64,000 bases of DNA from an uncultured virus (IMG/VR IMGVR_UViG_3300006169_000035). Taxonomy: Duplodnaviria; Heunggongvirae; Uroviricota; Caudoviricetes. The translations under genes and the position numbers were made by a program. Location: IMG/VR virus record IMGVR_UViG_3300006169_000035; one strand, 5' to 3'. A model generated the notes under the pieces. That model worked only from the letters and a program-made list of their open reading frames with translations, had not been told where the DNA came from and searched no databases. The stretch's first letter is position 1. Each line of letters starts with the position of its first letter. Below, piece by piece: positions 48,838 to 63,742 of this stretch.

Positions 48838-49125
48838 CTAGCTCTCGTTCCAGACGGTTCCGAGCCAGTGGCCCAGGCCGAAGACGATGAGGTCGACCGC
48901 GATGTTCGGGTAGTCCTCGGGGCCCGATGTGTTGAAGATCGTCTTGCCCACGTCGGCTCGTTCGAGAGCCTGCTCGAAGACTTCGTACGCCGACGCCGCG
49001 AGCATCGACCACACGAAAGGGATCTCCATCAGGCCGAAGCTGAGCCCGATCCCGAAGTGCACGATCGTCCACGGATCGATCGCTGCTCCGTTCTGCTCGC
49101 TCTTGCGGGTCGCAACGAGCTTCAT
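48838..49125 (-). CDS. Small polytopic membrane protein with D-x-W-x-x-x-H / E-x-x-E / N-x-x-x-D polar motifs
   Basis: IDPWTIVHFGIG...AYEVFEQ...PEDYPNIAVDL. Confidence 0.7.
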   Translation of the reverse strand: MKLVATRKSEQNGAAIDPWTIVHFGIGLSFGLMEIPFVWSMLAASAYEVFEQALERADVGKTIFNTSGPEDYPNIAVDLIVFGLGHWLGTVWNES

Positions 49126-49553
49126 CGCACCACGTTCGCTCCGATGAGCGCGCCTCCGATCGGCAGCGCGTAGATCCAGATGTTGCCGAGCACAGGGTGC
49201 ATCGCGACCAGGTCAGGATCGAGAACGAACGGAAGCTCGCCGAGTACGACCCCGATCGCGGTGCCGATCGTGGCGGCAGTTCGCGTAGGGCGAGGTGACG
49301 TGATGGCTGCGCCTGCGCTCGCGGCAACGAGGTGGAAAGCGGCGCATCGGAGACGGACGTTACGGTTGCGTCCGTAGGTCTGGTCGTAGTTCCAGCCGCC
49401 GGTACGGAGACGAGTGAATGCGGCCGCGGCGAGCGCTGCGAGAACTCCTCCCGCTGCAGCTCCGAGCGCAGCTCGTCCTCCGATCGGCAACGGGTTCTGC
49501 TCGACCCACGGATCGAGCATGTCGTCCTCGAGAACTTCGTAGAGCTCGCTCAC
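49122..49553 (-). CDS. Polytopic membrane protein
   Basis: Acidic leader, QNP, then 3-4 hydrophobic segments. Confidence 0.65.
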   Translation of the reverse strand: MSELYEVLEDDMLDPWVEQNPLPIGGRAALGAAAGGVLAALAAAAFTRLRTGGWNYDQTYGRNRNVRLRCAAFHLVAASAGAAITSPRPTRTAATIGTAIGVVLGELPFVLDPDLVAMHPVLGNIWIYALPIGGALIGANVVR

Positions 49554-49771
49554 GACGGCTCCTTTCGATCGTCGTCGAAGATGTTGCCCCATGGCAGATG
49601 GGCGATCGCTACGCCGGCGCCGAGCACGAGTGCACCGATCGCGATGGCTGGCTTGCGATAGAGATCGGCGATCGTTGCTCCCACGCCAGCGATCCCGATG
49701 CCGAGACCGAGCGCTGCAAGAGTGCGACGCGTCGGACCTCGTGAGATCGGATTCTGGTCGTCCACGGGCAA
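49550..49771 (-). CDS. Small two-TM protein
   Basis: DDQNP...LAALGLGIGIAGVG...IAIGALVLGAGVAIA. Confidence 0.6.
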   Translation of the reverse strand: MPVDDQNPISRGPTRRTLAALGLGIGIAGVGATIADLYRKPAIAIGALVLGAGVAIAHLPWGNIFDDDRKEPS

Positions 49772-49777
49772 GCTCCT

Positions 49778-50560
49778 TTACGGCGCGAACGACAGCTGGC
49801 CGGGTTGCGCTCCGCCACCCTTACCGACGCCGGGCCCTGGATCGGGATCAGGGAGTCTGATCTCCGGAACCACCGTCGGATCGAAGTCGCCGAATCCGAG
49901 CTCAGCGAGACGCTCGGCGATCTGCTCGTCGACGAAGTCGGGGTCGCTCGTGCCGAGAACGCGACCACCTTCGGCGATGATGGTCCGGCCGATCACGTAG
50001 ACGAGCCCCATGTAGAGGTTCGCCATGCGGGCCGTCGACGACGGATCGCCTGGCATCGGGACCGGTGGCCAGCGGCACTCCTCCCAGAACTCCATGAAGA
50101 AGTCCGTCGCGAGTTCGGTTGGGTCGGCGCTCTTGGCTGCTGCATCGCTGCTCTCGGCCACGGCGACGTCGATGAGCGCGGAGAGGTACTGGATCTGCGG
50201 ACCTTCTTCGCCTTCGACGAAGACGAAGTCCGAGCAGCCCTCGCCGACGTAGAAGCCAGCCGGCGTCGTCGGTCCCGGTTCGCAACCGTCCTTGTCGCGA
50301 ACGAAGCCGGGATAGTCGGCGCCGCACGGACCAACGCCGAGTCCCCGATCGGGCGGCTCTGTGATGATCGGCGGGATCGGCCGATCGGGCTTGCCGTTCT
50401 GTGGTGGCGGCGGAAGCTCGGACATGTCCTTCTTCCGCCGCCGATCCTCGTATGCACGGTAGCCCCAGTAGCTGAGGCCTCCGACGGCGATGGCGCTGAC
50501 CCCGATGATCGCCCAGGTCAACGGCTTGGGGTTGCGTCGAGATCTGCGTCGCTTCGCCAT
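49778..50560 (-). CDS. Single-pass membrane protein with basic-NP leader
   Basis: MAKRRRSRRNPKPLTWAIIGVSAIAVGGLSYWGY; Cys-containing ectodomain. Confidence 0.8.
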   Translation of the reverse strand: MAKRRRSRRNPKPLTWAIIGVSAIAVGGLSYWGYRAYEDRRRKKDMSELPPPPQNGKPDRPIPPIITEPPDRGLGVGPCGADYPGFVRDKDGCEPGPTTPAGFYVGEGCSDFVFVEGEEGPQIQYLSALIDVAVAESSDAAAKSADPTELATDFFMEFWEECRWPPVPMPGDPSSTARMANLYMGLVYVIGRTIIAEGGRVLGTSDPDFVDEQIAERLAELGFGDFDPTVVPEIRLPDPDPGPGVGKGGGAQPGQLSFAP

Positions 50561-50571
50561 CGTCGTTCTCC

Positions 50572-51351
50572 TTACGGATTGCTCAGCCGGTTCGCCAGTC
50601 GCTTCTGGCGTTCGGGGTTGTTCGCGAGGTCGCCCTGTCGCTCGCGCTCGTAGGCACCAGGGTTCCCCTGGCGAGCCCTGACGCCCATCGCGGAGAACGT
50701 ATCCGCTGCTGCCTTCTGGCTCGGCGCTCCGGGTCCGCATACCGCCTTGGCACGACGGGCACTCGGGCGCTTGCCGCCGGTGCGCTTGCGACTTCCCGAA
50801 CCGACGACGCACGCGGCCTTCGTCGACTTCGAGATCCGACCTGAGCGCTTCGCGACCGGAAGCGGCGTCTTGCGCTTCTTCTTGCCGCGCTTCTTGCCAC
50901 GCTTCTTCTTGCCGGCCTTCTTGCCGCGCTTCTTCTTCGGCGGGTTGTCGTCGCGCATCTCGGCGTTCGAGGCGACGGCCCGAGCGCGCTTCTTGCTGCG
51001 ACGCTTGGCGCCCTTCTTCCCGCGCTTCTTCCCGCGACGCTTCTTGCCGACCTTCTTGCGACGCTTCTTGCCGGCCTTCTTCGCGACCTTCTTGCGACGT
51101 CGCTTGCCGACCTTCTTGCCGGCCTTCTTCCCGCGCTTCTTCCCGCGCTTCTTCCCGCGACGCTTCTTGCCGACCTTCTTGCGACGCTTCTTCTTGCCGG
51201 CGGGAGCCTCGGCCGAAGCGGCCTTCTTGCGGCGCTTCTTCTTGCCGCCCTTCTTCTTGCCGCGGCGCTTGCCGGCCTTCACGGCCGTGCTGCCGGCCTT
51301 CTTGCCGCGGCGCTTGCCGGACTTCTTGGATGCTGTCTTGGCACGAGCCAT
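50572..51351 (-). CDS. Lys/Arg-rich histone/protamine-like protein
   Basis: KKRGKK / KKVGKKRR repeats over about 170 aa; GAGGAG RBS; AAG/CGC codon bias. Confidence 0.85.
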   Translation of the reverse strand: MARAKTASKKSGKRRGKKAGSTAVKAGKRRGKKKGGKKKRRKKAASAEAPAGKKKRRKKVGKKRRGKKRGKKRGKKAGKKVGKRRRKKVAKKAGKKRRKKVGKKRRGKKRGKKGAKRRSKKRARAVASNAEMRDDNPPKKKRGKKAGKKKRGKKRGKKKRKTPLPVAKRSGRISKSTKAACVVGSGSRKRTGGKRPSARRAKAVCGPGAPSQKAAADTFSAMGVRARQGNPGAYERERQGDLANNPERQKRLANRLSNP

Positions 51352-51390
51352 GGGGTTTCTCCTCTTCCAGATACTACAACGTTCGCGGTG

Positions 51391-51693
51391 TCAATGGTCG
51401 AGTAGTAGATGCAGGTGCTTGCGAAACTGCTGCAGGAAGTCGTCCGCGGCGACCGTTTGCGAGGTCTCGGTGGCGTCCCGGAGTTCCCGCTGCAGCTTCG
51501 TCAACGCGGAGCGTGAGAGATCCGCGTCACCGATCGGAAATCCGTGGATCCACATCCGCTGCTGGACGAGCGGTAGATCAGCGCGGAGCTGGATGAGCTC
51601 ACGCTGAGGCGCCCTCGCGGCAGGATTCACGGCCTTGGCCCGGCGAGCCCACGGCCGCACGCGCACAGGAGCAGCAAGTGCCTTGCGAGTCAT
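51391..51693 (-). CDS. Hypothetical protein with basic-NP leader
   Basis: MTRKALAAPVRVRPWARRAKAVNP...; ATGA coupling. Confidence 0.55.
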   Translation of the reverse strand: MTRKALAAPVRVRPWARRAKAVNPAARAPQRELIQLRADLPLVQQRMWIHGFPIGDADLSRSALTKLQRELRDATETSQTVAADDFLQQFRKHLHLLLDH

Positions 51694-52655
51694 CTCGACT
51701 CCCCTCGGGCGAGTCGACGCGCCATGTTGCGGATCCGTTGTTGCTCGGTCCGCTCGCTCACCGAGCGAGGGCCCCACGGGTTGAGAGCTCGAGCCGGGCG
51801 GTAGACGATCTTCTGCGGGTTCGGCTCGGATCCGCCAGCGAGTCGTACCAGGGCGTTAGGGTTCGCATGGCGCCCTCGCAGGAGCTTCTTGTAGTCGCCT
51901 GGTCGCACGTCGAGTTCGAGATCGGCGTCGCGCGGATATCCCTTGTCGATCAGCTTCGCGACGTCTTCGAGCGGCACTTCGACGACGTCGACAAGGCGAT
52001 CTCCACGAAAGAGGAAGTACGCCTCCTTGGGACCACCACTTCCGATCCAGCTGGTTGGCGTGACGCGGATGAGCGTCATGCCAGAAGATGGGTTGTGCTC
52101 CTTCTCGATCGTGGCGAGCTTCCGATAGTAGTCGCGATCCTCGACGAGATGGTCCATGGCGATCGCGAGAGCCGTGTCCGTATCGTCCGTGTGTTCGAGC
52201 TCCACCTTCAGCCCGCGGACGACCTCGGCCGTCTTGAACTCGTCTGCGGTGCGGCCGTCGGCAAGACCGCCGCGTCGAGGCGCTCGCCAACCCTCATGCT
52301 GGCGAGCCTTGACGTGGCACTTGATCTTGTCGTCGCTCATCGGTCCCGGATTTCCTTTGCGATCGGAAAGCTCGGCTTCGTAGACAGCTCCCGATGGGTC
52401 CACGATCCATCCGTTGACCTTGGTCGTTCCCGGCTTGTATTTGCCGAGATCTTCGGTCTCGAACCCGATGAAGTTCACGGGGCGCATGAAGCTCGAACCC
52501 GGAATGACCACGCGGTTCTTGCCGTCCTTGCGGGCGTAGTGTGCAGCGGCCACGATCGCGTACTCGGTGTTCTCCGGGTGGGCGCGCCAGTTCGCGACGG
52601 CGCGCTTTGGCTTCGCGCTCACCTGACCCAACCGATCGCCTCGCGTGACCTTCAT
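51690..52655 (-). CDS. NP-punctuated multi-module protein containing a DUF5661-like domain
   Basis: GLKVELEHT....ALAIAMDHL.E..DYY.KL flanked by KGNP and EHNP; 5 NP. Confidence 0.75.
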   Translation of the reverse strand: MKVTRGDRLGQVSAKPKRAVANWRAHPENTEYAIVAAAHYARKDGKNRVVIPGSSFMRPVNFIGFETEDLGKYKPGTTKVNGWIVDPSGAVYEAELSDRKGNPGPMSDDKIKCHVKARQHEGWRAPRRGGLADGRTADEFKTAEVVRGLKVELEHTDDTDTALAIAMDHLVEDRDYYRKLATIEKEHNPSSGMTLIRVTPTSWIGSGGPKEAYFLFRGDRLVDVVEVPLEDVAKLIDKGYPRDADLELDVRPGDYKKLLRGRHANPNALVRLAGGSEPNPQKIVYRPARALNPWGPRSVSERTEQQRIRNMARRLARGESR

Positions 52656-52667
52656 CTGCCTTGTCCG

Positions 52668-53390
52668 CTAGTTCGCCTTCAGCCACTTCGCGAAGTCGCT
52701 GCCCCAGTCGTCCATGTTCGCACGGAGCTCCTTGAGGCGCTTGCGCGACTGTTCGAGACCCTCGCCGCCGGCGTAGTCCTTCTCGGCACTTGCCTCACCG
52801 ATCCAGTAGGCAGCGCGCACGAGCGATCCGACCGACCGGCGCACGTCGTTGCGTTCTAGCTGGTCGGACGCAGCGGTGAGCTCGCGGTCGGCCGCTGCGA
52901 CAGCAGACTTGAACGATCGAGCCGACTGTGCAGGGTCGTGCGTGTTGCGGGCTCGGGCGCCCCGCTGCGAGCCTCCTCGCTTCGTGCCCGGATTTCTCAC
53001 CTTGGCGGTCTCCAACCACCTCGGGTGCGCCCAGTTTTCGGCGCTCTTGGGAAGCTGCCTGTCTTGTATGAAAGCGTCGACGGTGTCGTTCCAGGCTTCG
53101 CGTCGAGCCGGCTTGTCGGGCACGCCATCTTGCTCGTACTGCTGCGCGATGTAGGGCAGAACCTCCTCACGAAAATACGACTCGAAGTCCTTCTTCGACA
53201 TGGGGTTGCTGCGACGACGCTTCGTTTGCTTCGCCCACTTCACGCGCCAGTCGTTGCCCTGCTTGAAGACGGAGACGTTTTTCACGTCGGGGGACTTCGA
53301 GATGAAGTCTGCGAACGCCTGAGCATCCGACTTCTTCGCATACGGAACTCCGACTCTCGCCTCCCATGGATTCGTGCTCTTCTTCGCCAT
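52668..53390 (-). CDS. NP-punctuated three-module protein
   Basis: MAKKSTNP..., RRRSNP MSKKDF..DKPARREAWND..., KVRNP... Confidence 0.75.
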   Translation of the reverse strand: MAKKSTNPWEARVGVPYAKKSDAQAFADFISKSPDVKNVSVFKQGNDWRVKWAKQTKRRRSNPMSKKDFESYFREEVLPYIAQQYEQDGVPDKPARREAWNDTVDAFIQDRQLPKSAENWAHPRWLETAKVRNPGTKRGGSQRGARARNTHDPAQSARSFKSAVAAADRELTAASDQLERNDVRRSVGSLVRAAYWIGEASAEKDYAGGEGLEQSRKRLKELRANMDDWGSDFAKWLKAN

Positions 53391-53404
53391 CGCCTTGTTC
53401 TCCC

Positions 53405-55684
53405 TCAGCCCGGGTTCGCGAGTCGAGCCGCTGCTCGGCGCTCGCAGATGTTCGCGCAGTGGCAGGGGTTGCCCGCCTTCGGCTGCGCTGTCATCACGCG
53501 CTCGTAGTACGCCTTGTCGATGTTGTCGGTCGAACGGATGACGACGTAGTCGCCGTAGCGCTTGTCCTCCCAGACCGACTGCGCGGTACCGTGGTGATCG
53601 GCTCGAGCCTGGGCGTACTTCTTCGCGAGCGCCAGGTCGTCGAGGCTCACGCCGCCCTTGTCCTTCACCCACGCCTCGTTGAGGCCCTTCGGGTTCGAGG
53701 ATCGAGGCTTGACCGGCGGCGGACCGCGACGACCACCGCGCTCCCACTTCTCCCGCTCCTTGCGGTACTTCGCGAGTTCGACCGCGTCGCCCTTGTAGGG
53801 GTTCTTTCGCTTACCCTCCTTCGTGTACTCGGTACGAAGAACATCGCGAGTCTCACGCCCAAGCGACGTCAGCCCATCGTCGTCGACGAGCTCCATGCGA
53901 TCGAGCAACAGCCACACCTTGTCTGGTATGTGCTGACGCGCTTGTGCTCCACCGGCCGCCGCGAACAAGGCTTTGATGTGGCGACCCGTCGGTTTCTTGT
54001 CCAAGGACATAAGCTCCTCGGCAGCATCACGGGCCTTATTGCGTTCGCTGTTGCGGGCAGGATTGCGGCCAGGCTTGGCCTCCTTCTTCTGGCGTCGCCT
54101 TGGGTTGCTCTGCTTGCGCTCCTCGGCTGCATCGATCGCGGAGTAGACGACGTTGTCCATCTCTGCCGAGAGCTTCTCGTACGACTTGCGCAGCTTCTTG
54201 TCGGAGTCGATCGCTCGCTTGAGGTTCTCCCAGTCGGGCCCGTCGATGTTCTCCCAGAAGCCGACGCCGTGGCCGACGAACGCAGCCCAAGTGTTGAAGG
54301 CGATGTCGTCCTCGGACTCGACGTCGTCGGTGCCCTCAAGGCCTGACGTGCTGCCCGGCGGCCTCTTCATCCACGCGTTCACGACGCGGTTCGCCTCGCG
54401 CGTGAACGCGTTCTTGGCGGCTTCGAGTTCCTTGGTGTGGTGGACCTCGTTCTCCACGTCGCTCGTCGTCAAATCGTCGCGTTCTTGGACCGCGCCTTCG
54501 ATCATGCCGTCGATCTCGAAGTCCACCCACTCGCTGGCGGAGTAGTGGCGCCCTTGGTTGGTCTTGCGACCGCGAGGGTTTTCGCTCTTGCGTGCGGCCT
54601 CGAAGGCCTTCTTTGCAGCCGCGTAGCTGCGGCGTGCGACCGCGTTGATGTCGTCGCCGAACGTCTCCTCCATCTCGGCGTAGGTCTTGGTGGACGGTTC
54701 CGCATCGACGTTGTCGGAGCCGTGATACCCCGCGCCCATTTCAGCGACGCGCCACTTCGCGAGCGGATCACCGGATGCGAGCTCTCGGATCTCTGCCTTG
54801 GTCGTGCCGTACGTGCTGGCGATCTCCCCGAGGTCGGACTTCATCCAGTCGAGCTGGTTTTCGAGGACGTCCTCGTCGGGATCGTACGGGAACCACCGAA
54901 CCTCGTAGGTTGCGGACTCGATCTCGTCCTCGTCCTCTGGTGCTTCCCAGAAGATCCAGCGCAACTCCTTGTACGTGGGGTCGTAGTACAGGATCCCTCC
55001 GCCGTGCGTCAGCGGATCGACGTCGCCGGTGCTGAGGATCGGAATGTTGCGCTCTGGGTTCTTCCGACCCTTCTTCTTCCCACTCTTCTTCTTCACGCTC
55101 TGCCTCTTCTTTCCGCGCCAGCCAGGTTCGATCCGATCGGCGATCGCGGCACAGTAGGCACCGGGATCGGAAACCTTCTTCTTCCCGCGGCGCTTGCTGA
55201 CCTTCTTGATGCAGCCGCTGACGCTGCCGCCGGGCATCTCCTTCATCGGGTTGCCCTTGCGACCTCGCTTCTTGCGACGCGGGTTGTCCTCGGAGTACGC
55301 CGCGCTCACCAGCGCCTCTTCGAGCATCGCGTAGGGCTCTTCGAGCTCCTTGCGGAGGCACGACGATATCTTCTGCCAACGGCGCTCGGTGGCATCGGGG
55401 TAGAACTCGTCCCATCTGCCATCCCAGATCCCGACGCCTTCGCCGGCGAGTGTCGCGTAGACGTCGTACGCGGTCCCCGGATCGTTGAAGAGCCGCGACG
55501 TGTTTCCCTTCGGAGGGAACTTCTTGAAGCAGGACTTGAGCGCTTCCTGGACGCTCTCCTCGAAGTAGACCGATGCGTCCCGTACCTCGTCAGGCATGCT
55601 GACCCGCTTGTCCGCGAGACCGTCGAGGACGAACTGCGCCCAGTCTTCAGGCGCATACTCCGGGTTCTTCTTCTTGCGTGCCAT
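53405..55684 (-). CDS. 759-aa NP-punctuated multi-module protein (putative polyprotein)
   Basis: 11 NP dipeptides in basic linkers separating mostly acidic modules. Confidence 0.8.
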   Translation of the reverse strand: MARKKKNPEYAPEDWAQFVLDGLADKRVSMPDEVRDASVYFEESVQEALKSCFKKFPPKGNTSRLFNDPGTAYDVYATLAGEGVGIWDGRWDEFYPDATERRWQKISSCLRKELEEPYAMLEEALVSAAYSEDNPRRKKRGRKGNPMKEMPGGSVSGCIKKVSKRRGKKKVSDPGAYCAAIADRIEPGWRGKKRQSVKKKSGKKKGRKNPERNIPILSTGDVDPLTHGGGILYYDPTYKELRWIFWEAPEDEDEIESATYEVRWFPYDPDEDVLENQLDWMKSDLGEIASTYGTTKAEIRELASGDPLAKWRVAEMGAGYHGSDNVDAEPSTKTYAEMEETFGDDINAVARRSYAAAKKAFEAARKSENPRGRKTNQGRHYSASEWVDFEIDGMIEGAVQERDDLTTSDVENEVHHTKELEAAKNAFTREANRVVNAWMKRPPGSTSGLEGTDDVESEDDIAFNTWAAFVGHGVGFWENIDGPDWENLKRAIDSDKKLRKSYEKLSAEMDNVVYSAIDAAEERKQSNPRRRQKKEAKPGRNPARNSERNKARDAAEELMSLDKKPTGRHIKALFAAAGGAQARQHIPDKVWLLLDRMELVDDDGLTSLGRETRDVLRTEYTKEGKRKNPYKGDAVELAKYRKEREKWERGGRRGPPPVKPRSSNPKGLNEAWVKDKGGVSLDDLALAKKYAQARADHHGTAQSVWEDKRYGDYVVIRSTDNIDKAYYERVMTAQPKAGNPCHCANICERRAAARLANPG

Positions 55685-55686
55685 CC

Positions 55687-55992
55687 TCATTTCCCTTCGG
55701 CGTAGTCGCGAGCTTCTTGCAGGGATCCTACAACAAGAGGCCTGCCCGACGACGGCTCGAGCTGCCAGCGTCCGTCTTCGAGTTCGTAGGTGACCCACGT
55801 GGTCCCGTTGATCCTGACGGTTAGCGCGTGGCCAAGCGGAGCCTGAGCGTGATCGATCCTCGACCACTGCAGACGCCTGGGGTTCCGCTGTCGTTGCTCC
55901 GGTCGCCGCACGAGCCTGTAGATCCCGTAGCTCACAGCTGCAACGCCGAGAGCTGCGCCTCCTGCAACGAGGATCTTCGTGGTGCGCGTCAT
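55687..55992 (-). CDS. Single-pass membrane protein with internal RQRNP
   Basis: KILVAGGAALGVAAVSYGIYRL. Confidence 0.7.
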   Translation of the reverse strand: MTRTTKILVAGGAALGVAAVSYGIYRLVRRPEQRQRNPRRLQWSRIDHAQAPLGHALTVRINGTTWVTYELEDGRWQLEPSSGRPLVVGSLQEARDYAEGK

Positions 55993-55996
55993 GGGA

Positions 55997-56380
55997 TCAG
56001 ATCGGTGGCAGCACTTGGCTAGGTGTGACGCGACCGGGACATCCTGAGAGGCAGACCGCTGCGCCCATCTGCGCAGCGATCCACTTGCGAGCCTTGTCGC
56101 TCGCCTTCTCGGCGGTCTTCGCTGAGAAGACGCGGATCATCGCGCCGTCGAGATAGACGAGCGCCCAGTACGGCCTGCCGAACGGCATGCGCTGCACTCG
56201 GTACTCGTAGGTCGCTCCGGGCAGCCCGAGTCCGCCCTCGGGCGTGTCGCTCGCGGCCGTGGGTCGCGTGAGGCGGTAGATCCCGTAGCCGATGAGGCCC
56301 GCTCCTGCGAGCCCCCCGATCGTCAGCACAGCGATCTGTGCTCCGCTCGGGTTCTTCTTCCTTCGTCGTCTGCGTGCCAT
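55997..56380 (-). CDS. Single-pass membrane protein with basic-NP leader
   Basis: MARRRRRKKNPSGAQIAVLTIGGLAGAGLIGYGIYRL. Confidence 0.8.
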   Translation of the reverse strand: MARRRRRKKNPSGAQIAVLTIGGLAGAGLIGYGIYRLTRPTAASDTPEGGLGLPGATYEYRVQRMPFGRPYWALVYLDGAMIRVFSAKTAEKASDKARKWIAAQMGAAVCLSGCPGRVTPSQVLPPI

Positions 56381-56393: not shown

Positions 56394-56609
56394 TCAGGTC
56401 CCGATGACATCTTCGGGACCGGCCCAGTTCTCGCCGGGGATGAGGACTCCGGTCTCGATCGCCTTGTTGAAGAGACGGTTGCATCCCCAGCCGGCGAGGA
56501 CGAAGCCTCCGACTCCGCCGACGAGTACCGCTGCGCCCATCAGCAGACCCGTTTCGAGTCCGGTGGGATTTCTGCGACGTCGACCGCCGCGTCTGTTTCG
56601 CTTGGCCAT
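56394..56609 (-). CDS. Small membrane protein with basic-NP leader
   Basis: MAKRNRRGGRRRRNPTGLETGLLMGAAVLVGGVGGFVLAGW. Confidence 0.75.
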   Translation of the reverse strand: MAKRNRRGGRRRRNPTGLETGLLMGAAVLVGGVGGFVLAGWGCNRLFNKAIETGVLIPGENWAGPEDVIGT

Positions 56610-56631: not shown

Positions 56632-56862
56632 TCAGCTCCACGTGTCCGGAACGCCGTAGTCGGGCTCCATCGGGAAGTCGTCGGTGCGTTCGTCGAAGCG
56701 CTTCTGCGCGTCGTCGACCATCTTCGTCCCCTTCTTGATCCCGTAGATCATGACGCCTCCCACGATGAGCGCTGGGACCACGACGCCGAGGGTGACCCCG
56801 ATCGCGACCCATGCTCCCGTGCTGAGGTTCTTCTTGCGCTTGCGTCTTCGTTTGCCTGCCAT
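56632..56862 (-). CDS. Small membrane protein with basic-N leader
   Basis: MAGKRRRKRKKNLSTGAWVAIGVTLGVVV. Confidence 0.75.
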   Translation of the reverse strand: MAGKRRRKRKKNLSTGAWVAIGVTLGVVVPALIVGGVMIYGIKKGTKMVDDAQKRFDERTDDFPMEPDYGVPDTWS

Positions 56863-57386
56863 CACTGCAACTCCTCGATGGACACGCCCTGGCCTTGCGC
56901 CCACCGTTGCATCATCGCGTACCAGGTCGCGACGTCGTCTTCGGTCAGCATGCTGTCCTGCTGCATCACCGTGATCAGCTCGGAGAACACGACCGCGAAC
57001 AGCTTGGCTTCGCCCGGGAGATTGGTCCGGGCCGGATAGGTCGCGCAGCTCGGAGCCAGGCTTCGCACGTAGCGAGCTGCAATCGCGAACGGATCGACGG
57101 GTCCCGACGCCGAAGCAGACCGGATGCGCTGACGAAGTTCGTCGCGCAGTCGTGGCTGATCGACGAGATCGAACGACGCGCAACCGGGAGCGACTACGAT
57201 CGGACGACTCAGCAGATCGTCGTCCGTGGCTGCCCACGCGATGGTGGCGATGGTAGCGATCGCGATGACGCTGCCGCCTACGCCGAGCGCGATCTTCTCG
57301 GCGCGCGAGAGATTTCGCAGCGGGTTCCTGATGCGCCGCAGCGGGTTACCGATCCGCCGAAGCGGATTGCGAGGGCTGACCCTCAT
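56862..57386 (-). CDS. Single-pass membrane protein with triple NPLR leader
   Basis: RNPLRRIGNPLRRIRNPLRNLS then TM. Confidence 0.8.
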   Translation of the reverse strand: MRVSPRNPLRRIGNPLRRIRNPLRNLSRAEKIALGVGGSVIAIATIATIAWAATDDDLLSRPIVVAPGCASFDLVDQPRLRDELRQRIRSASASGPVDPFAIAARYVRSLAPSCATYPARTNLPGEAKLFAVVFSELITVMQQDSMLTEDDVATWYAMMQRWAQGQGVSIEELQ

Positions 57387-57389
57387 CGG

Positions 57390-57887
57390 TCAGCACTCCC
57401 CTTCTGGCGGACACGGCATCCACGAGTAGTACCAGCTTGGGGGATAGAAGGCCGTCGGACGCGGGGCAGCCAACGGCCGCGCCGCCATCTGCTGGGCGAT
57501 TTGCATCGCCGAAAACGGGTTCGCGATCGGCAAGCCGCCGCGACTGGCGATGTAAGCCGAGGCGACCGTCTGCGCGACCTCGGGCGACTCGTAGGGGCCG
57601 GGAAAGAGCACCGGCCCACCGGGGCCATGACCGACCGTCGTCGAATAGCCTGCCGGCGTCTGCTGGACCGAGTAGGGCTGCGTCGGAGCGACCCACGGCC
57701 TGCCGTATGGGTAGTACGACGAGTAGCCCCACGGCCATCCGTATGGGTTGCGCTGTCCGGAGCTCGCGAGGAAGGTGTTGCTGCCTCCTCCGTAGCTGCG
57801 GAAGCGCGGGTTCGCCGAAGGATTGGAAAGCCCGAGCGCCTGACGGCGGGCTTCCATGATCGGGCCACTGCTTCTTCGTCGTCTCAT
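57390..57887 (-). CDS. Tyr/Pro/Gly/Trp-rich low-complexity protein with NP motifs
   Basis: MRRRRSS...SNPSANPR...QRNPYGWPWGYSSYYPY; GGAGG RBS. Confidence 0.7.
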   Translation of the reverse strand: MRRRRSSGPIMEARRQALGLSNPSANPRFRSYGGGSNTFLASSGQRNPYGWPWGYSSYYPYGRPWVAPTQPYSVQQTPAGYSTTVGHGPGGPVLFPGPYESPEVAQTVASAYIASRGGLPIANPFSAMQIAQQMAARPLAAPRPTAFYPPSWYYSWMPCPPEGEC

Positions 57888-58885
57888 GCTGCACCTCCAA
57901 GCGTTCGCTTGTTGTAGTAGCTCTGATTGGCGACGGTCCCGAGGAGCTGCACGGCCGTCCAAGCCTTCCACTCGGCGCCCCCGTACGCGTACGGCGAGAG
58001 CCCCTGCGACCAGTCCGAGCTCGGCACGAGCTGCGTCAGGATCCGACCGATGGCCGCGTCTCGATCCGCTGCCTTCGACCAGTCCACGCCGTTGCCGATC
58101 TGCACGAGCGCAAGCTCGTACACGGCTCGAGTATGCTCGGGCGTGAGGCCGGTGATCAGCGTGGAGATCGCCTTGGGATCGACGTTGGTCGACAGCGAGT
58201 AGGTGCCGCCTTCGTCGACGAGCACCACATGCGTGTCGTCGAGCAGGCCGTCCGAGCCAACAACTCCGAACATCGCGCCGGCGGGCGACTCGACTTGTCC
58301 GGCGACGAGGACGTTGAGCACCGGCACGGTCTCGTACTCTTCGAAGTTCGCCTCCGGTGTCTGGACCATGATCGGCTGTTGGATGTCGAGCATGACGTAC
58401 GGCACGTCGCCGATCGTGGTCGAAGCGCCAAGGATGCTCGCGACACCTTCCCCGCCTCCAGGAAGCTGAGCTCGCCGACGCTGCACGAGACGATAGGCGC
58501 CGTAGCCTGTCGCGGCCGCAAGAACGCCTCCTCCGAGCGCGAGCAAGATCGTCGAGCCCGCAGGGTTCATGCGGGGGTTGCTCTTCTTGCTGTCGGGGCT
58601 GAAGCCAGCGAGGTAGCCACCGAGTGCCGCGCCGATCGGACCGAGGAACACGCCGCCGAGGCCACCGCCGATCGCACCTCTGCGCTTCCTGTCGTCCTTG
58701 GCTCCGTAGTAGCCGCCGAGCGCTGCTCCGCCTGCCCAGCCGACCCACGTCACGACGGCTCCGAAGCCCTTGGCTCCGAGCGCCATCAGCAGGTGACCTG
58801 GGATCCCGCCGATGATGCTGCCGATGAACGCTCCGAGGCCGGAGTGGTTGTTGACGGGGTTCTTCCTCTTGCGTCTGCGGCTCAT
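57884..58885 (-). CDS. Glycine-zipper membrane module joined by NP motifs to a second TM-anchored module
   Basis: MSRRRKRKNP...GAIGGGLGG...KKSNPRMNP-TM-domain. Confidence 0.8.
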   Translation of the reverse strand: MSRRRKRKNPVNNHSGLGAFIGSIIGGIPGHLLMALGAKGFGAVVTWVGWAGGAALGGYYGAKDDRKRRGAIGGGLGGVFLGPIGAALGGYLAGFSPDSKKSNPRMNPAGSTILLALGGGVLAAATGYGAYRLVQRRRAQLPGGGEGVASILGASTTIGDVPYVMLDIQQPIMVQTPEANFEEYETVPVLNVLVAGQVESPAGAMFGVVGSDGLLDDTHVVLVDEGGTYSLSTNVDPKAISTLITGLTPEHTRAVYELALVQIGNGVDWSKAADRDAAIGRILTQLVPSSDWSQGLSPYAYGGAEWKAWTAVQLLGTVANQSYYNKRTLGGAA

Positions 58886-59040
58886 GCTCCACCTCCGAGC
58901 GCTGCGCTCTTCTTCTTGCGGGACTTGTAGGCCAGGATCCCGCCGGCGACGACGAGCCCAACCGTGAGACTCACGGGTAGCAGCCAGGGGCTGACCCCGA
59001 GCTTGTAGTTCTTGCGTCTGCGTTTGCGCTTGCCTGCCAT
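58882..59040 (-). CDS. 52-aa membrane peptide with basic-N leader
   Basis: MAGKRKRRRKNYKLGVSPWLLPVSLTVGLVVAGGILAYKSRKKK. Confidence 0.7.
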   Translation of the reverse strand: MAGKRKRRRKNYKLGVSPWLLPVSLTVGLVVAGGILAYKSRKKKSAALGGGA

Positions 59041-59459
59041 CACGTCACCTGATCGTATTTGTCGACGAGGATCGCGAGCGCTTGCTCGCGGGTGGCCGTA
59101 GGCCAGAAGCCATCGACCACGAGACCTTTGAGGTTGCTTCCGGTTGCGACCACGACGTAGTTGCACGGCGGATCACAGACGTCGGAAGGTGAGCGGAGCT
59201 TGAGGATCCGCCACGCGAACTTGAACCCTTGCGGCCCTTCGACGTCGTAGAAGCCGACGTCGTCGAGATCCCATCCCATGGGGAACGAGCTCACCTCGGG
59301 CATCGTTCCCTCGAGCCGTTCTTCCCACCACTGCTTGGGCTGCTCGATCGCCTTGGGGCGGCTCAGCACACGCACGAGCAGGACGGCCGCCGACGCAGCG
59401 ACGACGCCGGTGCCGATGAGCGCGGGGATGAACCAGGTCGGGTTACGTCGCCGAGTCAT
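59040..59459 (-). CDS. Single-pass membrane protein with basic-NP leader
   Basis: MTRRRNPTWFIPALIGTGVVAASAAVLLV. Confidence 0.8.
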   Translation of the reverse strand: MTRRRNPTWFIPALIGTGVVAASAAVLLVRVLSRPKAIEQPKQWWEERLEGTMPEVSSFPMGWDLDDVGFYDVEGPQGFKFAWRILKLRSPSDVCDPPCNYVVVATGSNLKGLVVDGFWPTATREQALAILVDKYDQVT

Positions 59460-60214
59460 CAGTGGATGAGCCCCCTCGGATGCAAGTCGAGCTCGCCTCC
59501 GTGAATGATGATGATGTTCGGGACGGTGCGGTCGGTGTCCTGCCAGATCCAGACGTCGTACCAGTGGTTGTGGATGTACTCCTGCGCTTCGAGCTTCGCG
59601 GGATCGGGATCAGCGTCGTTCCACTTGTCCGACGCGTAGCTCAGACTGTCGGCTGCGCCGATCGCCTTCACGCTGACGTCTGGGATCCCGACGGTCAGCA
59701 GGCACTGCGGGTCGCGCTGATGCCAGCTGCGGTAGAGCTCGACGCTCTCCCACATGGAGTCCGGGATCGGGTTGCACTCCTGCGGGTAGGGCTGGTTCGG
59801 CATCGCGTAGAGCATCTTGCGGCCGTTGTCCCACCACAGCAGAGGCGGATGGTTGCGATCGAGCTCACGAACCTGCAGACGACCTCGCCGATCGAGGAAC
59901 ACGTACTCCACGAGGACACCGAGATCGATGAGCGGCTTCTTCGGCATGGGCGCCTTGCCGCCGCCGGGCCAGTGGCACACGCCGTCGCTACAGCGCTTCC
60001 AGGTCTGCTTGCCGGTCTGGTTCCACCGAAGCGTGATCTCTCGCCACGCTGCCCGACGAGCCAGATCCTTCTTCCCGTAGACGTCGAGGCCCTCCTCGTA
60101 CGCCTCGTCCCACTCCTCGCGCACCGCATCTGGCAGCGTTCGAGGGGATGGATCCGGGGGATCGTGGATCGACGGCAGCGCGTTGCGGCGTCGCTTTGGG
60201 ACCTTCGAAGGCAT
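59459..60214 (-). CDS. ChaB-like N-terminal domain fused to an unknown domain
   Basis: LPDAVREEWDEAYEEGLDVYG..DLARRAAWREI...W...G..W resembles ChaB. Confidence 0.65.
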   Translation of the reverse strand: MPSKVPKRRRNALPSIHDPPDPSPRTLPDAVREEWDEAYEEGLDVYGKKDLARRAAWREITLRWNQTGKQTWKRCSDGVCHWPGGGKAPMPKKPLIDLGVLVEYVFLDRRGRLQVRELDRNHPPLLWWDNGRKMLYAMPNQPYPQECNPIPDSMWESVELYRSWHQRDPQCLLTVGIPDVSVKAIGAADSLSYASDKWNDADPDPAKLEAQEYIHNHWYDVWIWQDTDRTVPNIIIIHGGELDLHPRGLIH

Positions 60215-60711
60215 CAGTCGTCGTCTTCCTCTTCCTCGTCGTCCTCGTAGAACTCCTCGATCCTCCGTTCGAGCTTGCGGAAGTGCTCTTCCTGCTTGGC
60301 GTCCTGTCGTGCCTCGAACTCCGAGAGCATCCGACGCAGATCGTCGGACGTCGTGCGCTGATCTGCAGCCGCAGCCGCCGTGGCCGCCGCTGTCGCACGA
60401 CGCCTGCGTCCCGTCGAGCGCAGTCGTGGGCTGTACGTGAGCGACTCCGGCATCGTGTCGTCGTACTGCGCTTCGGGCGGACCGTAGTCGCCTTCGAACC
60501 GAGGTGGCGGAGCAGGCGGAGCATCCTTGCGCTTCACCGCGCGACGAATGAGGTTGATGAGCCCATAGCCTCCGGCGACCGCGAAGACGCCGATGAAAGC
60601 ACTGACCGCGGACGTCAAGATCGTCGTCTTGATGAGCTCGACTCGCTGATCGCGGACCTGATCGTCTGTGGGCGGGTTGGGCACGGCACGGATGTTGGGA
60701 TTGTCGACCAT
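60214..60711 (-). CDS. Single-pass membrane protein with acidic tail
   Basis: MVDNPNIRAVPNP...TM...EDDEEEEDDD. Confidence 0.7.
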   Translation of the reverse strand: MVDNPNIRAVPNPPTDDQVRDQRVELIKTTILTSAVSAFIGVFAVAGGYGLINLIRRAVKRKDAPPAPPPRFEGDYGPPEAQYDDTMPESLTYSPRLRSTGRRRRATAAATAAAAADQRTTSDDLRRMLSEFEARQDAKQEEHFRKLERRIEEFYEDDEEEEDDD

Positions 60712-60715
60712 GGTG

Positions 60716-61345
60716 TCACGCGTACGCAGCCGAGCGACCGACGGCGGCAAGAACCGCATCGATGCCCGGCCAGTGGTAGTTGCTGCGGATTGCCCTCTTG
60801 AACATGAAGTTCGGATCGATGCCAGCGCATTCGAGACCGCGTGCGAGTTGCGATCGGTAGCCGGGATGATCGACATCGTCGGTGTCGGTCGGGTAGCCCC
60901 AGCAGCGGCGGAAGGCGAGCCAGTCGAGCTCCTGGCCCTCGTCGCCAAATGGGATGCACCGATGGATGTACCACGCCGCGAGAGCGGTCGCGGTCCACGG
61001 ATCCTTGAGCGCTGACGCAGGCAGCCCAAGATCGTAGACCCGAGCAGACTCGGGCCGCATGCCGTAGAGGCCACGGGCCGCGTTGCCGGAGTCCGATCCC
61101 GCGTTCGGATTGCCGCGGCTCTCGATCCAGGCGACGCCGGAGAGGAAGTCGCCGAGGCCGTCGAGGTTCGTGATCCGCTCGATCGGCTTGGCCATCTCGT
61201 GGATGAGCGCGGGCGCACCCGGATCGACCCATCCTCGGCAGAGCTGCGGAGCAGCATCGGGCAACAGGGCGTATACGCCGGTGCCCACGAGCGCCGCGAC
61301 GCCAACGCCCAGAGCTCCGTACGCCGCCCACTGCGGGATCTTCAA
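60716..61345 (-). CDS. Membrane-anchored lytic transglycosylase (SLT-like)
   Basis: N-terminal TM; VAWIESRGNPNA.....ARGLYGM...L.DP.....A.WY. Confidence 0.75.
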   Translation of the reverse strand: MKIPQWAAYGALGVGVAALVGTGVYALLPDAAPQLCRGWVDPGAPALIHEMAKPIERITNLDGLGDFLSGVAWIESRGNPNAGSDSGNAARGLYGMRPESARVYDLGLPASALKDPWTATALAAWYIHRCIPFGDEGQELDWLAFRRCWGYPTDTDDVDHPGYRSQLARGLECAGIDPNFMFKRAIRSNYHWPGIDAVLAAVGRSAAYA

Positions 61346-61668
61346 CGCCGCCCTCCCGCGCTGGCTCGCTTGCCGCGCTTCTTCTTGTATGCGAGGGCTT
61401 TCTCGGTGACGACGTGCACCATCGGCTCGGCGACGTCGAGCAGGTCTCGATGCTCTGGAAGAACGCGACGGCCAACGCGAGCCATGAGCGTCACCAGGTC
61501 GTTCTTCTTTTCGAGCCGGAACCGCGGGAGGTCTTCGTCGACCAGGAGTTCGGCGATGAGCTTGCCGAGTTCCTCTTCGTTCCTCGCGGAGTGGACACGT
61601 TCGAGCGCATCGGTGACCAGGTAGTGGTCGTCGACGCGACGGATGCTGAGCAAGATCGGATCGTTCAT
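61342..61668 (-). CDS. Hypothetical protein with basic tail
   Basis: MNDPILLSIRR...KKKRGKR; coupled ORF. Confidence 0.6.
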   Translation of the reverse strand: MNDPILLSIRRVDDHYLVTDALERVHSARNEEELGKLIAELLVDEDLPRFRLEKKNDLVTLMARVGRRVLPEHRDLLDVAEPMVHVVTEKALAYKKKRGKRASAGGRR

Positions 61669-62081
61669 CGCAGCCACCCCGTCAGTAGAGCACGGTACCA
61701 AGCCGGACCGGGAGGCATGTGTCGCGGCCGGGGCGTACGTGGCGGAGGCGGGTACGATGCGGGGATTCCCGTGGTGTTGAGCAGGGCGGCTACGCTGCTC
61801 GCAACGCGGCGCGTGAACTCCATCTCGGGACCGGTACGCGGGGCTCCGATCGGGATCGAAGGTGCAAGACTGGAAACGATCTCGGACGTGATCGCGTCAG
61901 CGTTGTCGCCCCAGGCCACGCGAGCTCGACCGTAGGTAGGCAAGAAGCACGACGAGATCCAAGAAGGCGTCACCCGGAGCCGGCCAGCGGCGAACGGAGA
62001 CGAGCACGGACGAGGATGCGCCGGCGCGAGTACGACGTAGCCGTGGCGGCTGCGACGAGGGTATGTGCTCGCGGCGACCAT
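61665..62081 (-). CDS. Hypothetical protein
   Basis: Fills the operon gap; ATG adjoins the upstream stop. Confidence 0.5.
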   Translation of the reverse strand: MVAASTYPRRSRHGYVVLAPAHPRPCSSPFAAGRLRVTPSWISSCFLPTYGRARVAWGDNADAITSEIVSSLAPSIPIGAPRTGPEMEFTRRVASSVAALLNTTGIPASYPPPPRTPRPRHMPPGPAWYRALLTGWLR

Positions 62082-62984
62082 TCAGACCCCTGGCAGCTCC
62101 ACTCCCGACATGTCGATGCCGAGTCTCATGATCGCAGGCGGGGGATGAAGCGTGCTCGAGCCGTCGCTCCACGCCCCGAAGCGGATCGAAGGCATCGGGT
62201 TGTTCGGTGACAACGCGGCGAGGTCGAAGGCAGGCATCCACACCAGCATCTGCCGGCTGCCGCGGGAGCCCGGCAGCGAGCGTCCTGCCACGCTCGTCGT
62301 CCTCCTGAGCGAGCGTCCCGACTGGATCCGATCGAGGTTGTCGGCGTGTCGCGGCAGCCAGTTGAGCCCGCGACCCTCCGCGTTGAGCACGTAGGCGCCG
62401 GAGAGTGGTCGCGCCGGATCGCCGCCGGGCTTGTTCGGATCGTTGCCGCCGGCGAGGTTGAGGTTGCTCTGTCCGTAGAGCAGATCGTTGATGCCACCGA
62501 CGACCATGATCGCATCGCGGGTCTCTCGTCGCAGACGTCGCCCAAGGGACGCGTTTGCTTGCTGACCCTCAGCGGCCGCGATCGATGGATCGTTGCCCGC
62601 CATCGCAAGCGCAGATCCGAGAAGGGCCCGCACCATGCGGTCATACCCCCACGATGGCTTGAAGGGTCCGCTCGCGTCGCCGGCGTTGAACCACGTCGAT
62701 GGCGTCGGGTAGTTCTCGTAGTGCAGCGCCGGGAACTCCCACGGGTATCCCGGGTCGTCAGGCGTGACGATCTCCCACGCTGTCGACTCGTCGGAAGGCT
62801 CGTCGTCCTCCTCGTCGCTCTCGCCATCGTCGACGTCAGGCAACCGCGGGCCGAGCGGCTCTTCGGCAGTCGCCCTCCTGCGACGCGATGCAGCGTACGC
62901 AGCTCCGCCTAGACCGAGTACGAGCGCTCCCGATCCGATCATGAGCACCCACTGCGTGGGCGTCGGATTTCGTCTACGCCTCAC
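62082..62984 (-). CDS. Single-pass membrane protein with basic-NP leader
   Basis: GGAGG RBS, GTG start: RRRRNPTPTQWVLMIGSGALVLGLGGAAYAASRRRR. Confidence 0.8.
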   Translation of the reverse strand: MRRRRNPTPTQWVLMIGSGALVLGLGGAAYAASRRRRATAEEPLGPRLPDVDDGESDEEDDEPSDESTAWEIVTPDDPGYPWEFPALHYENYPTPSTWFNAGDASGPFKPSWGYDRMVRALLGSALAMAGNDPSIAAAEGQQANASLGRRLRRETRDAIMVVGGINDLLYGQSNLNLAGGNDPNKPGGDPARPLSGAYVLNAEGRGLNWLPRHADNLDRIQSGRSLRRTTSVAGRSLPGSRGSRQMLVWMPAFDLAALSPNNPMPSIRFGAWSDGSSTLHPPPAIMRLGIDMSGVELPGV

Positions 62985-63742
62985 TCCACCTCCCAGAAGT
63001 TGTTCCAAGCGTACCAGCCGTCCTCGAAGTCGTAGATCCCGATCCCGAGACGCACCATGAGGTAGTCCCACCAGAGCTTGAAGTTCGGGTTCTGCTTGAG
63101 CGCCTGCTTGTTGAGCGGGTCGGGACACCGAGGCATGCGTGCCTGCATCTCGGCGAGCTCGGCGTAGATCCGTGATCCGATCTCGCGAATCGAGTCCTCT
63201 TCGAGAGGAACGTCGTCACGCGCGTAACGAGCGACGAGGCGCGCGACGTAGCCCCAGGCGGTTCCGGTCTGACCGGTTGGGCTGACGTATCGCAGCGCGT
63301 CGGCCAGCGTGGCCTGTGCAGACGGCCCTCCGTTGACCGGCATCCACCAGTTGCCCCACTCCTGGTAGCCGGGCACCGGCAAGAAGAGACGACCTTCCGC
63401 GATCACCTTGCAGTCCGGACTGATGTAGACGAGGTTGCCGTTCCAGTCGAAGTCGCGCGGGATCCCACCAGCTCCGTACTGTCCGCCTCCCCATCCCTTC
63501 TTGCGCGGCGGAGGACCTTGGTTGTCCGGGCCCGGGATGATCTCGCCCGATCCAGGGATGTCCGGATCGATGTCGGGCTCTCGCTCGCCAGGTGGCAGCA
63601 CGGGACCGATCGGCTCTTCGCCGGCACTCTTCTTCCGGCGGCGCATCGCGTACGCTCCGCCGGCAATGCCGAGTCCGAGCGTGCCAGCGGCAACGAGGAT
63701 GGCCCACTGAGTGGGCGACGGGTTTGGCAGACGCAGTCTCAT
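62981..63742 (-). CDS. Single-pass membrane protein with NP leader
   Basis: MRLRLPNPSPTQWAILVAAGTLGLGIAGGAYAMRRRKK. Confidence 0.8.
   Translation of the reverse strand: MRLRLPNPSPTQWAILVAAGTLGLGIAGGAYAMRRRKKSAGEEPIGPVLPPGEREPDIDPDIPGSGEIIPGPDNQGPPPRKKGWGGGQYGAGGIPRDFDWNGNLVYISPDCKVIAEGRLFLPVPGYQEWGNWWMPVNGGPSAQATLADALRYVSPTGQTGTAWGYVARLVARYARDDVPLEEDSIREIGSRIYAELAEMQARMPRCPDPLNKQALKQNPNFKLWWDYLMVRLGIGIYDFEDGWYAWNNFWEVE

Follow-up and report, generated by a model that had tools for sequence, protein, structure and literature searches.

Why should most of the proteins encoded by one gene module carry a run of lysines and arginines that ends in asparagine, usually followed by proline? The question is raised by a 64,000-nucleotide stretch of DNA (the window) from a 75-kb uncultured virus-like element, IMG/VR record IMGVR_UViG_3300006169_000035 (source contig 75,067 bp). 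An initial annotation had noticed such basic runs with Asn(-Pro) in about 20 "otherwise unrelated" proteins and had read them as an Asn-directed maturation or sorting signal used across a virion proteome, an interpretation that our analysis partly supports. We report that the motif acts at the protein level, is restricted to the module and is conserved. As for its function, the explanation that we favor, tentatively and at not quite an even chance, is that putative DNA- or lipid-binding basic arms are closed by a fixed Asn-Pro hinge.

A protein motif confined to one gene module

The module consists of 25 tightly packed minus-strand genes running from 48838 to beyond 64000; the range given at first, 49122..63742, located it correctly and was slightly too narrow. 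Genes and starts were called from a codon-usage model, ribosome sites and orthologues, and a GGAG/GAGG-type ribosome site lies 5-12 nt 5' of most starts. The statistics use a refined set of 24 genes (4800 aa) and within-protein shuffles (n = 2000). Asn-Pro (NP) occurs 48 times in this set against a shuffle mean of 11.3, and 0/2000 shuffles reach 48, an enrichment over shuffled controls of the kind that the motif, if genuine, was expected to show. The pattern [KR][KR]x0-2NP, with 18 occurrences against a mean of 0.62, is likewise equaled by 0/2000 shuffles. Near the N-terminus, [KR][KR]x0-3N falls within the first 20 residues of 13 proteins, compared with 0.89 from whole-protein shuffles and 4.1 when residues 2-20 alone are shuffled; with Pro required ([KR][KR]x0-3NP), nine proteins remain, compared with 0.04 and 0.35, respectively, and in all leader-motif tests 0/2000 shuffles reach the observed value. 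Ordinary composition is thereby ruled out, including that of residues 2-20. Among the 25 module proteins, 19 contain at least one NP, 17 contain [KR]x0-3NP and 13 contain [KR]xxNP, which makes "about 20 proteins" a fair count.

The basic residues keep a preferred distance from NP. K/R occupies position -3 in 29/48 sites, as against 15-16 of 47-48 at positions -4, -2 and -1. The same peak recurs in three related metagenome loci (L001, L002 and L004), as conservation in homologous genomes would require: it reaches 0.50 in L001 (neighboring positions 0.14-0.23), 0.40 in L002 (versus 0.11-0.17) and 0.45 in L004, the latter two taken without their repeat proteins. The non-module genes of the window have K/R at -3 in 6/25 NP sites, with no peak. 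Because a single -3 peak appears in the module and in three related loci, and none in the non-module genes, we write the motif as [KR]-x-x-N-P.

Frame restriction and synonymous codon use rule out a motif at the DNA level: AAYCC occurs 48 times in frame and once in each of the other two frames of the module, and all four Pro codons are used. A genome-wide NP habit is ruled out as well, the rest of the window holding 25 NP against 19.2 expected; the HerA-like ATPase, the integrase, ParB and the clamp have 0 NP, as stated initially. Nor can the runs be ribosome sites (AGGAGG) read as Arg-Arg, since they lie 3' of ATG/GTG starts that have ribosome sites of their own. All 13 sites first listed are present, on the minus strand and 3' of true start codons, and the motif does stand at the ends of N-terminal leaders and between domains. 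Nine of the listed sites have NP: MAKRRRSRRNP (50560), MAKKSTNP (53390), MARKKKNP (55684), MARRRRRKKNP (56380), MAKRNRRGGRRRRNP (56609), MSRRRKRKNP (58885), MTRRRNP (59459), V/M-RRRRNP (62984, GTG start) and MRLRLPNP (63742). The other four have Asn without Pro: MAGKRRRKRKKNL (56862), MAGKRKRRRKNY (59040), MPSKVPKRRRNA (60214) and MARRRHNV (28783), the last of these being the only listed example from outside the module.

Codon usage adds a layer of its own. AAT encodes 12/48 Asn of NP pairs compared with 4/111 other Asn (12/16 module AAT codons precede Pro), and the rare Arg codon AGA accounts for 12/69 Arg codons in codons 2-16 and for 6/358 elsewhere in the module, which makes it about ten times commoner near the starts. 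The AGA bias fits selection on the 5' coding region, an mRNA-level layer that cannot explain internal sites. It also speaks for a by-product reading, in which selection for A-rich, weakly folded mRNA starts, combined with duplication of an anchor module, would have generated N-terminal K/R/N runs and NP would be functionless. Met-Ala starts in 11/24 complete module proteins (counted by eye) are in line with this idea, as is a 21-nt tandem repeat at 57316-57365, the duplication that made the triple R-NP-LRRI unit encoded by 56862-57386. So is the kinship of the leaders: in an all-against-all BLAST without composition correction, 10 proteins match one another over their first 60 residues (expectation value, E, 1e-3 to 3e-18) and give no mutual match in their remaining parts. 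Part of the motif's recurrence thus reflects one shared anchor module, and the description "otherwise unrelated" holds for the remainders of these proteins and not for their starts. The by-product reading leaves the internal and C-terminal sites, the -3 peak and the in-frame restriction unexplained, Asn and Pro are conserved through synonymous change, and the motif is present in three other genomes; we consider it quite improbable.

Anchors, arms and a putative Asn-Pro hinge

The genes of the module are as follows.

63739..63999, minus strand: C-terminal 86 residues of a gene leaving the window; no NP.
62981..63742, minus strand: 253-aa membrane protein; MRLRLP-NP-SPTQW, a Gly/Ala-rich helix, then RRRKK.
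62082..62984, minus strand: 300-aa membrane protein with a GTG start; RRRR-NP-TPTQW, helix, RRRR; anchor paralogous to that of 62981-63742.
61665..62081, minus strand: 138-aa protein without NP; weak coding signal, yet a real gene (tblastn match to L002:2438-2899, 37% identity).
60716..61345, minus strand: 209-aa protein; hydrophobic helix near the N-terminus; IESRGNPNA...GLYGM, read by eye with no Pfam match, resembles a lytic-transglycosylase motif and includes the protein's NP.
60214..60711, minus strand: 165-aa membrane protein; MVD-NP-NIRAVP-NP-PTDD, then helix; acidic tail.
59459..60214, minus strand: 251-aa soluble protein; MPSKVPKRRR-N-A leader, ChaB-like helices and a beta domain of unmatched fold.
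59040..59459, minus strand: 139-aa membrane protein; MTRRR-NP-TWF, then helix.
58882..59040, minus strand: 52-aa membrane protein; MAGKRKRRRK-N-Y, helix, KSRKKK.
57884..58885, minus strand: 333-aa protein with three hydrophobic helices; MSRRRKRK-NP and internal KKS-NP-RM-NP.
57390..57887, minus strand: 165-aa protein; MRRRRSS..., LS-NP-SA-NP and QR-NP.
56862..57386, minus strand: 174-aa membrane protein; three tandem R-NP-LRRI units, then helix.
56632..56862, minus strand: 76-aa membrane protein; MAGKRRRKRKK-N-L, then helix.
56394..56609, minus strand: 71-aa membrane protein; MAKRNRRGGRRRR-NP-TG, then helix.
55997..56380, minus strand: 127-aa membrane protein; MARRRRRKK-NP-SG, then helix.
55687..55992, minus strand: 101-aa membrane protein; helix first, with RRPEQRQR-NP-RR C-terminal of it.
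53405..55684, minus strand: 759-aa soluble multi-module protein; 11 NP in basic linkers or ends; terminates RRAAARLA-NP-G.
52668..53390, minus strand: 240-aa basic soluble protein; MAKKST-NP, KRRRS-NP and KVR-NP.
51690..52655, minus strand: 321-aa DUF5661 protein; five NP; C-terminal tail RIRNMARRLARGESR.
51391..51693, minus strand: 100-aa basic protein; RRAKAV-NP.
50572..51351, minus strand: 259-aa protamine-like protein, net charge +106; terminates RQKRLANRLS-NP.
49778..50560, minus strand: 260-aa membrane protein; MAKRRRSRR-NP-KPLTW, helix, DRRRKK.
49122..49592, minus strand: 156-aa protein, four hydrophobic segments; has a single NP and lacks the basic leader motif; orthologue in L004.
48838..49125, minus strand: 95-aa protein with two hydrophobic segments; no NP; L004 orthologue 64% identical.

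A Kyte-Doolittle scan places the start of a hydrophobic segment within residue 45 in 15/24 complete proteins. At least three K/R precede the helix in 12 of these 15 anchored proteins, Asn lies no more than nine residues before it in 11, and NP is present in nine. The anchor helices are Gly/Ala-rich and often followed by a second basic cluster; five anchors have at least four K/R on both sides of the helix, counting the 14 residues after it. The arrangement is reminiscent of uncleaved type II signal anchors that obey the positive-inside rule, with a basic N-terminal segment directly before a roughly 20-residue hydrophobic helix in 12/24 complete module proteins, and the combination of a basic segment and a following hydrophobic helix of at least 17 residues is indeed present. 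In contrast to type II anchors, the module arms are much longer (up to 8-9 K/R) and end in a conserved Asn(-Pro) whose distance to the helix is fixed; five module proteins are equally basic on both sides, and the motif is also found in soluble proteins. Other export signals fit less well. The twin-arginine translocation (Tat) consensus is S/T-R-R-x-F-L-K with an A-x-A cleavage site after the helix; the Arg runs of the module precede N-P/L/Y, not x-F-L-K. Class III prepilin signals have Gly/Ala at -1, hydrophobic residues from +1 and Glu at +5, and are cut by prepilin peptidase; here 3-7 residues separate NP from the hydrophobic stretch that follows it, soluble proteins carry the motif too, and no prepilin peptidase is among the Pfam matches. 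Word searches of open-access full text returned no paper that describes the motif or viruses of this kind, in keeping with the initial remark that no described system has this consensus.

Conservation singles out the Asn. In 15 orthologues of the 49778-50560 protein (47-59% identity), Asn is retained in 15/15, followed by Pro in 10, Leu in four and Ile in one, and keeps a constant distance of 5-6 residues to a near-invariant Trp; the arm before it comprises 3 to about 8 K/R. In the 59459-60214 family, Asn closes the basic leader in 21/24 members and is followed by A, K, P, D, R or G. Both families bear out the early impression that Asn is conserved and Pro replaceable. The 62082-62984 family counts 86 representatives, 53 with an N-terminal hydrophobic helix; in 21/53, the closer relatives, NP stands at most 14 residues before the helix, in some twice and in some without basic residues, and it does so even with a non-basic tail, as in QYQANPVEVKPW.

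The sister locus L002, syntenic with the window, shows another solution. Four of its five orthologous proteins have no N-terminal NP: three are anchored via M-S-T-x-G-K, and in the fourth no hydrophobic segment was detected at the N-terminus. The L002 anchors start MAEMSTSGRV (L002:5382-6146, the orthologue of 62981-63742 at 49% identity), MAQMSTAGKV, MALSNRGKA and MAKLGAVTSQDKV, none with NP, and we therefore regard the N-terminal arm plus NP as peculiar to one sub-lineage. Where L001 and the window lineage have N or NP, L002 shows S/T (ahead of the C-terminal tail helix) or M-S-T-x-G-K (ahead of anchors). Replacement of Asn by another small polar residue is what a capping or turn residue would show.

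The module thus holds two kinds of protein. About a dozen small membrane proteins share one plan, with Met-Ala, an Arg/Lys arm, Asn(-Pro), 3-6 residues and a Gly/Ala-rich helix, often followed by a second basic cluster, and the second kind comprises four to five very basic soluble proteins, including the protamine-like protein and the 759-residue fusion of swappable modules. In the hinge reading, the Arg/Lys stretches would serve as electrostatic arms that hold these proteins to nucleic acid and/or acidic lipid head groups and, on membrane proteins, would also fix orientation. [KR]-x-x-N-P would be a fixed hinge or turn, a seam of Asx-Pro type that ends the arm and sets off the next helix or module, the chain staying uncut. 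Both the targets of the arms and the intactness of the seam are what we infer. A comparable design exists in the SPKK/SPRK motifs of sperm histones H1/H2B and in the AT-hook RGRP, where a small polar residue plus Pro makes a turn within Lys/Arg-rich DNA-binding tails; here, by contrast, Asn replaces Ser/Thr, the basic residues lie mostly upstream of NP with their peak at -3, and DNA binding is putative.

We count in favor of the hinge the frame restriction, the module specificity, the -3 spacing, the fixed distance to the helix, the positions at seams, the S/T that stand for Asn in L002, the charge and the failure to find a maturation protease in the window. Several observations weigh against it. 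The arms seem to depart from a simple positive-inside rule, because five anchors are basic on both sides. AlphaFold2 models the 49778-50560 protein with coil at residues 1-12 (predicted local distance difference test, pLDDT, ~52) and helix at 13-47; in this low-confidence model the first helical residue is 13 and the Asn is residue 10, so NP is at most a putative cap residue of a helix that starts three residues further on. The retention of Asn in all 15 orthologues, at ~50-60% identity, is stricter than expected of a simple cap, which should exchange with S, T or D. Chains that end in RL[AS]NP or NPG (window 50572-51351 and 53405-55684; L004:75-650; P0001) leave a hinge nothing to set off, and tandem basic-run-NP units (eight in L002:13963-14721, three in 56862-57386) would suit cutting or docking equally well. 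The ectodomain of the 49778-50560 protein has no Foldseek match.

Seams, tails and the case for cutting or docking

Internal sites fall at the joints between modules. Residues 145-203, 373-518 and 627-661 of the 53405-55684 protein match stand-alone genes of the related loci L003 and L002 at 61-74% identity, and the three mapped modules start within four residues of NP145, NP369 and NP628. Two of its NP-started mini-modules occur in another order in L002:11199-11456. An MPGGSVSGC...EPGWR domain has NP on both flanks in the window and in L001-L004, and not in its tailed-phage versions L005 and L006. A stand-alone L002 module, MAKKRNKNQGRRY..., is without the NP that the fused window copy has at its seam, which argues that NP belongs to junctions and not to the cargo itself. 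Such a 759-aa chain of small modules, which relatives arrange differently or encode as single genes, resembles the polyvalent proteins of phages and conjugative elements (Iyer et al. 2017, PMC5512222), and the relatives' cargo, which includes a Prim-Pol domain and helix-turn-helix (HTH) proteins, extends the likeness; a uniform basic-NP seam and a shared C-terminal tail are not among the polyvalent-protein features that those passages of PMC5512222 give. Relatives of the protamine-like protein repeat the motif: in L004:75-650, 8/8 Asn are NP, with RR-NP-KKK repeated five times, and in L002:13963-14721, 9/9 Asn are NP, within eight tandem units of basic run-NP-EETTTKETA.

We also identified a C-terminal tail, ~(N-P/A)-x0-3-L-K-x-[KR]-L-L-[KR]-stop, common to consecutive, otherwise unrelated proteins of the relatives. 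It was located as follows.

L001:27-15060, L002:8452-14721, L003:1221-1418, L004:75-650 and L004:1583-2167: C-terminal tail in the related loci.
50572-51351, 51690-52655 and 53405-55684: C-terminal tail in the window.

The tail pattern, which was written after seeing the tails, matches 12/18 L001 and 10/28 L002 proteins, compared with an internal rate of 0.0007-0.0015. A Prim-Pol domain protein is among its carriers in relatives, as are an HTH protein and a DUF5591 protein. The window lineage has the variant [KR]RLAxRL[AS]NP or ARRLARG, and the fused 759-aa protein has lost its internal tails, keeping only the last. The tail looks like a cargo-loading or membrane-targeting tag and, being far more uniform than the NP motif, is the better candidate for a sorting signal.

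Seams and tails bring in a maturation cleavage code, under which a protease, or self-cleavage of Asn-lyase type, would cut at or next to N-P: basic leaders would be removed, fused cargo modules separated, C-terminal targeting tails detached and protamine-like repeats chopped into DNA-condensing peptides. A subsite-like consensus ([KR] at -3, N, P) does recur across module proteins of four genomes; NP marks module seams that are gene boundaries in relatives; it lies just upstream of the shared tail in 9/23 tail-bearing proteins of L001-L003; the protamine-like proteins of L002 and L004 place it at regular spacing and at every Asn; some proteins terminate exactly at NP; and Asn is strictly conserved. 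Adenovirus protease processes the core proteins pVII and pX (mu), and T4 gp21 processes head proteins. Like these systems and that of phiKZ gp175, the module combines Arg-rich proteins of the DNA-condensing type with one short consensus across many proteins of a structural module, [KR]xxNP in 13/25; unlike them, its consensus is not (M/I/L)XGX-G or xxE, and no protease gene was found in the window.

Asn-Pro is also a self-cleaving site in the NPTH motif of FlhB/YscU and at N42-P43 of reovirus mu1, so the chemistry is established; RsgI is a further case of self-cleavage at N-P (PMC10328401). In all of these, single sites lie in folded domains, whereas the module has 48 sites in basic, probably disordered stretches. 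N-P self-cleavage requires a folded, strained turn, but 0/48 sites are NPTH, no Pfam match to an FlhB/YscU-type domain was obtained for the module, and the N-terminal NP/Asn sites lie in low-confidence modelled coil (pLDDT 42-53). In the 59459-60214 model, for example, overall pLDDT is 81 and residues 1-20 are below 50.

The search for a protease elsewhere in the genome, which the initial proposal called for, yielded only an M23 peptidase of cell-wall type (30861-31778) among ~110 open reading frames (ORFs) compared with Pfam and PHROGs, over 64 of the contig's 75 kb; HExxH occurs in no convincing ORF of the window. The 59459-60214 protein was considered as a prohead protease and rejected: the Atlas lead scored 0.87, below the bar, and the ChaB-like part alone was matched (by Pfam at E 0.029 and by the PDB profile 1sg7 at E 0.0018), the beta domain having no match at Foldseek E<=0.001 or VIA-align Z>=5. 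In one relative, L002:11453-12214, an R-NP seam and the MPGGSV domain are immediately preceded by HENCH, a motif of HExxH type; the region weakly matches the metallopeptidase family DUF6782 (E 3.7e-4, which misses the Pfam cut-off). Polyvalent phage proteins are, moreover, partly known as processed, according to passages of PMC5512222. Against cutting, Pro at P1' is unfavorable for most proteases, and the sister lineage L002 has no NP on its versions of the same anchors. We consider a cleavage code unlikely, if by no means negligible, and the Asn-directed maturation or sorting signal first proposed is a candidate and not an established function; the virion proteome on which it would act is itself presumed, because no capsid gene was identified in the window.

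The motif could instead be a linear docking or sorting signal, bound without cleavage by a common partner (coat, scaffold or assembly factor) that would bring cargo and membrane proteins together in the particle or where it is assembled. Fixed spacing, disordered tails and the frequent presence of two to three copies (56862-57386 in the window; P0025, P0027, P0033, P0036, P0042 and P0052) are features of avidity-type linear motifs, and the sites are confined to one co-oriented module and also stand at extreme C-termini. However, the stand-alone L002 module MAKKRNKNQGRRY... does without the NP of its fused copy, no candidate receptor was found, and in relatives the tail L-K-x-[KR]-L-L-[KR] would be the more plausible sorting tag, which makes docking by NP rather improbable. 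Taken jointly, a cleavage or sorting code has a real but minor share of the probability.

Tail and motif could also form a two-part address system of a kind not described for bacterial viruses, though we hold this to be doubtful. The amphipathic tail L-K-x-[KR]-L-L-[KR] (in the window lineage [KR]RLAxRL[AS]NP) would put diverse cargo into the particle, and [KR]-x-x-N|P would be a release code cut by a protease or by Asn-lyase chemistry; leaders and tails would be trimmed, fused modules separated and protamine-like repeats cut into mu-like DNA-condensing peptides. If true, bacterial viruses would have their own equivalent of adenovirus core maturation.

The element around the module

The window has a G+C content of 62-67% (the genome is cited as 64% G+C). 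Its phage and mobile-element genes encode a tyrosine integrase, ParB, a beta-clamp and an SF1 helicase, alongside a RelA/SpoT-domain protein, the M23 peptidase, a GP88-family protein and a DNA methylase. The ATPase and the RelA/SpoT-domain protein lie at these positions.

364-2124, minus strand: HerA/FtsK-like ATPase.
27755..28783, minus strand: RelA/SpoT-domain protein starting MARRRH-N-V, outside the module.

Only the P-loop part of the ATPase matches a PHROG labelled terminase large subunit, and Pfam and PHROGs scans recognized no coat, portal or terminase gene in the 64-kb window. A beta-helix protein, GP88, the clamp and several PHROG matches point to a virus, with a conjugative element still in play as an alternative identity. 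Type IV secretion substrates also bear positively charged C-terminal signals.

The beta-helix protein (34849-36039, plus strand; 396 aa, Asn-rich) resembles right-handed beta-helix proteins in its Atlas model (template modelling score, TM, 0.51-0.63), and its feature neighbors are phage tailspike or DUF1565 clusters (0.90-0.92); from the model, it is likely a receptor-binding or depolymerase protein. In L002:15346-21708 (minus strand), three paralogous Asn-rich proteins of 1253, 430 and 429 aa share the N-terminus SGYFNQT.TVEYTI.GSLDG.TLVP; they have no Pfam match, and NP is not enriched in them (3 vs 6.2 expected). A 560-codon ORF beside the ATPase (3159-4871, minus strand) was examined as a coat gene and rejected: it has a lipoprotein signal (LTLLGCS) and GxSxG from an internal Met, both read by eye, and no family match, and its sequence suggests that the product is probably a secreted esterase, not a structural protein. 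ARAGORN reports a 97-nt tRNA-Val(GAC) at 31013-31109 (plus strand), antisense within the M23 peptidase gene and probably a false call, and just outside the module, at 48532-48607, the 9-nt unit CCGCCCCAG stands in eight tandem copies.

A block at 36044-47783 adjoins the module and encodes glycosyltransferases, a rhamnosyl O-methyltransferase/CmcI-like protein, a sulfotransferase, a LamG-like protein and a DNA methylase. It is conserved at L004:4483-11852, where two further genes, sugar-nucleotide dehydratase/epimerase-like as read by eye, join it, and the element may glycosylate its own or host structures.

The neighborhood of this block, at 36-47 kb, with its extension in L004, is what recommends a modification sequon, in which the Asn of [KR]-x-x-N-P would be modified by one of the element's own enzymes, such as a cytoplasmic glycosyl- or methyltransferase. 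A precedent is the chlorovirus coat, which is N-glycosylated at atypical sequons. No link between enzyme and motif was found in our analysis, however, there is no Ser/Thr preference two residues past the Asn, and such phage gene blocks usually act on host surface glycans or on Ser/Thr; we give this reading very little credence.

The lineage is missed by standard virus catalogues. Searches of the viral-contig collection, 185,579 species genomes and 50,697 phage records yielded no relatives of the module, which were found in metagenome contigs only; a search of the phage records with the ATPase returned two unannotated records and nothing else. The module is almost wholly dark, 21/22 genes as first called being without a Pfam family above the curated cut-off (the exception is DUF5661) and 22/22 without a PHROG match. 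A conserved motif in most module proteins thus offers rare access to how the particle or transfer apparatus is put together. If the hinge on DNA- or lipid-binding arms is true, this would be a virus that ties its genome to membrane proteins through protamine-like tails; if a cleavage or sorting code is true, it would be a new maturation system. Either way, the motif provides a simple sequence signature for finding the lineage and its structural genes.

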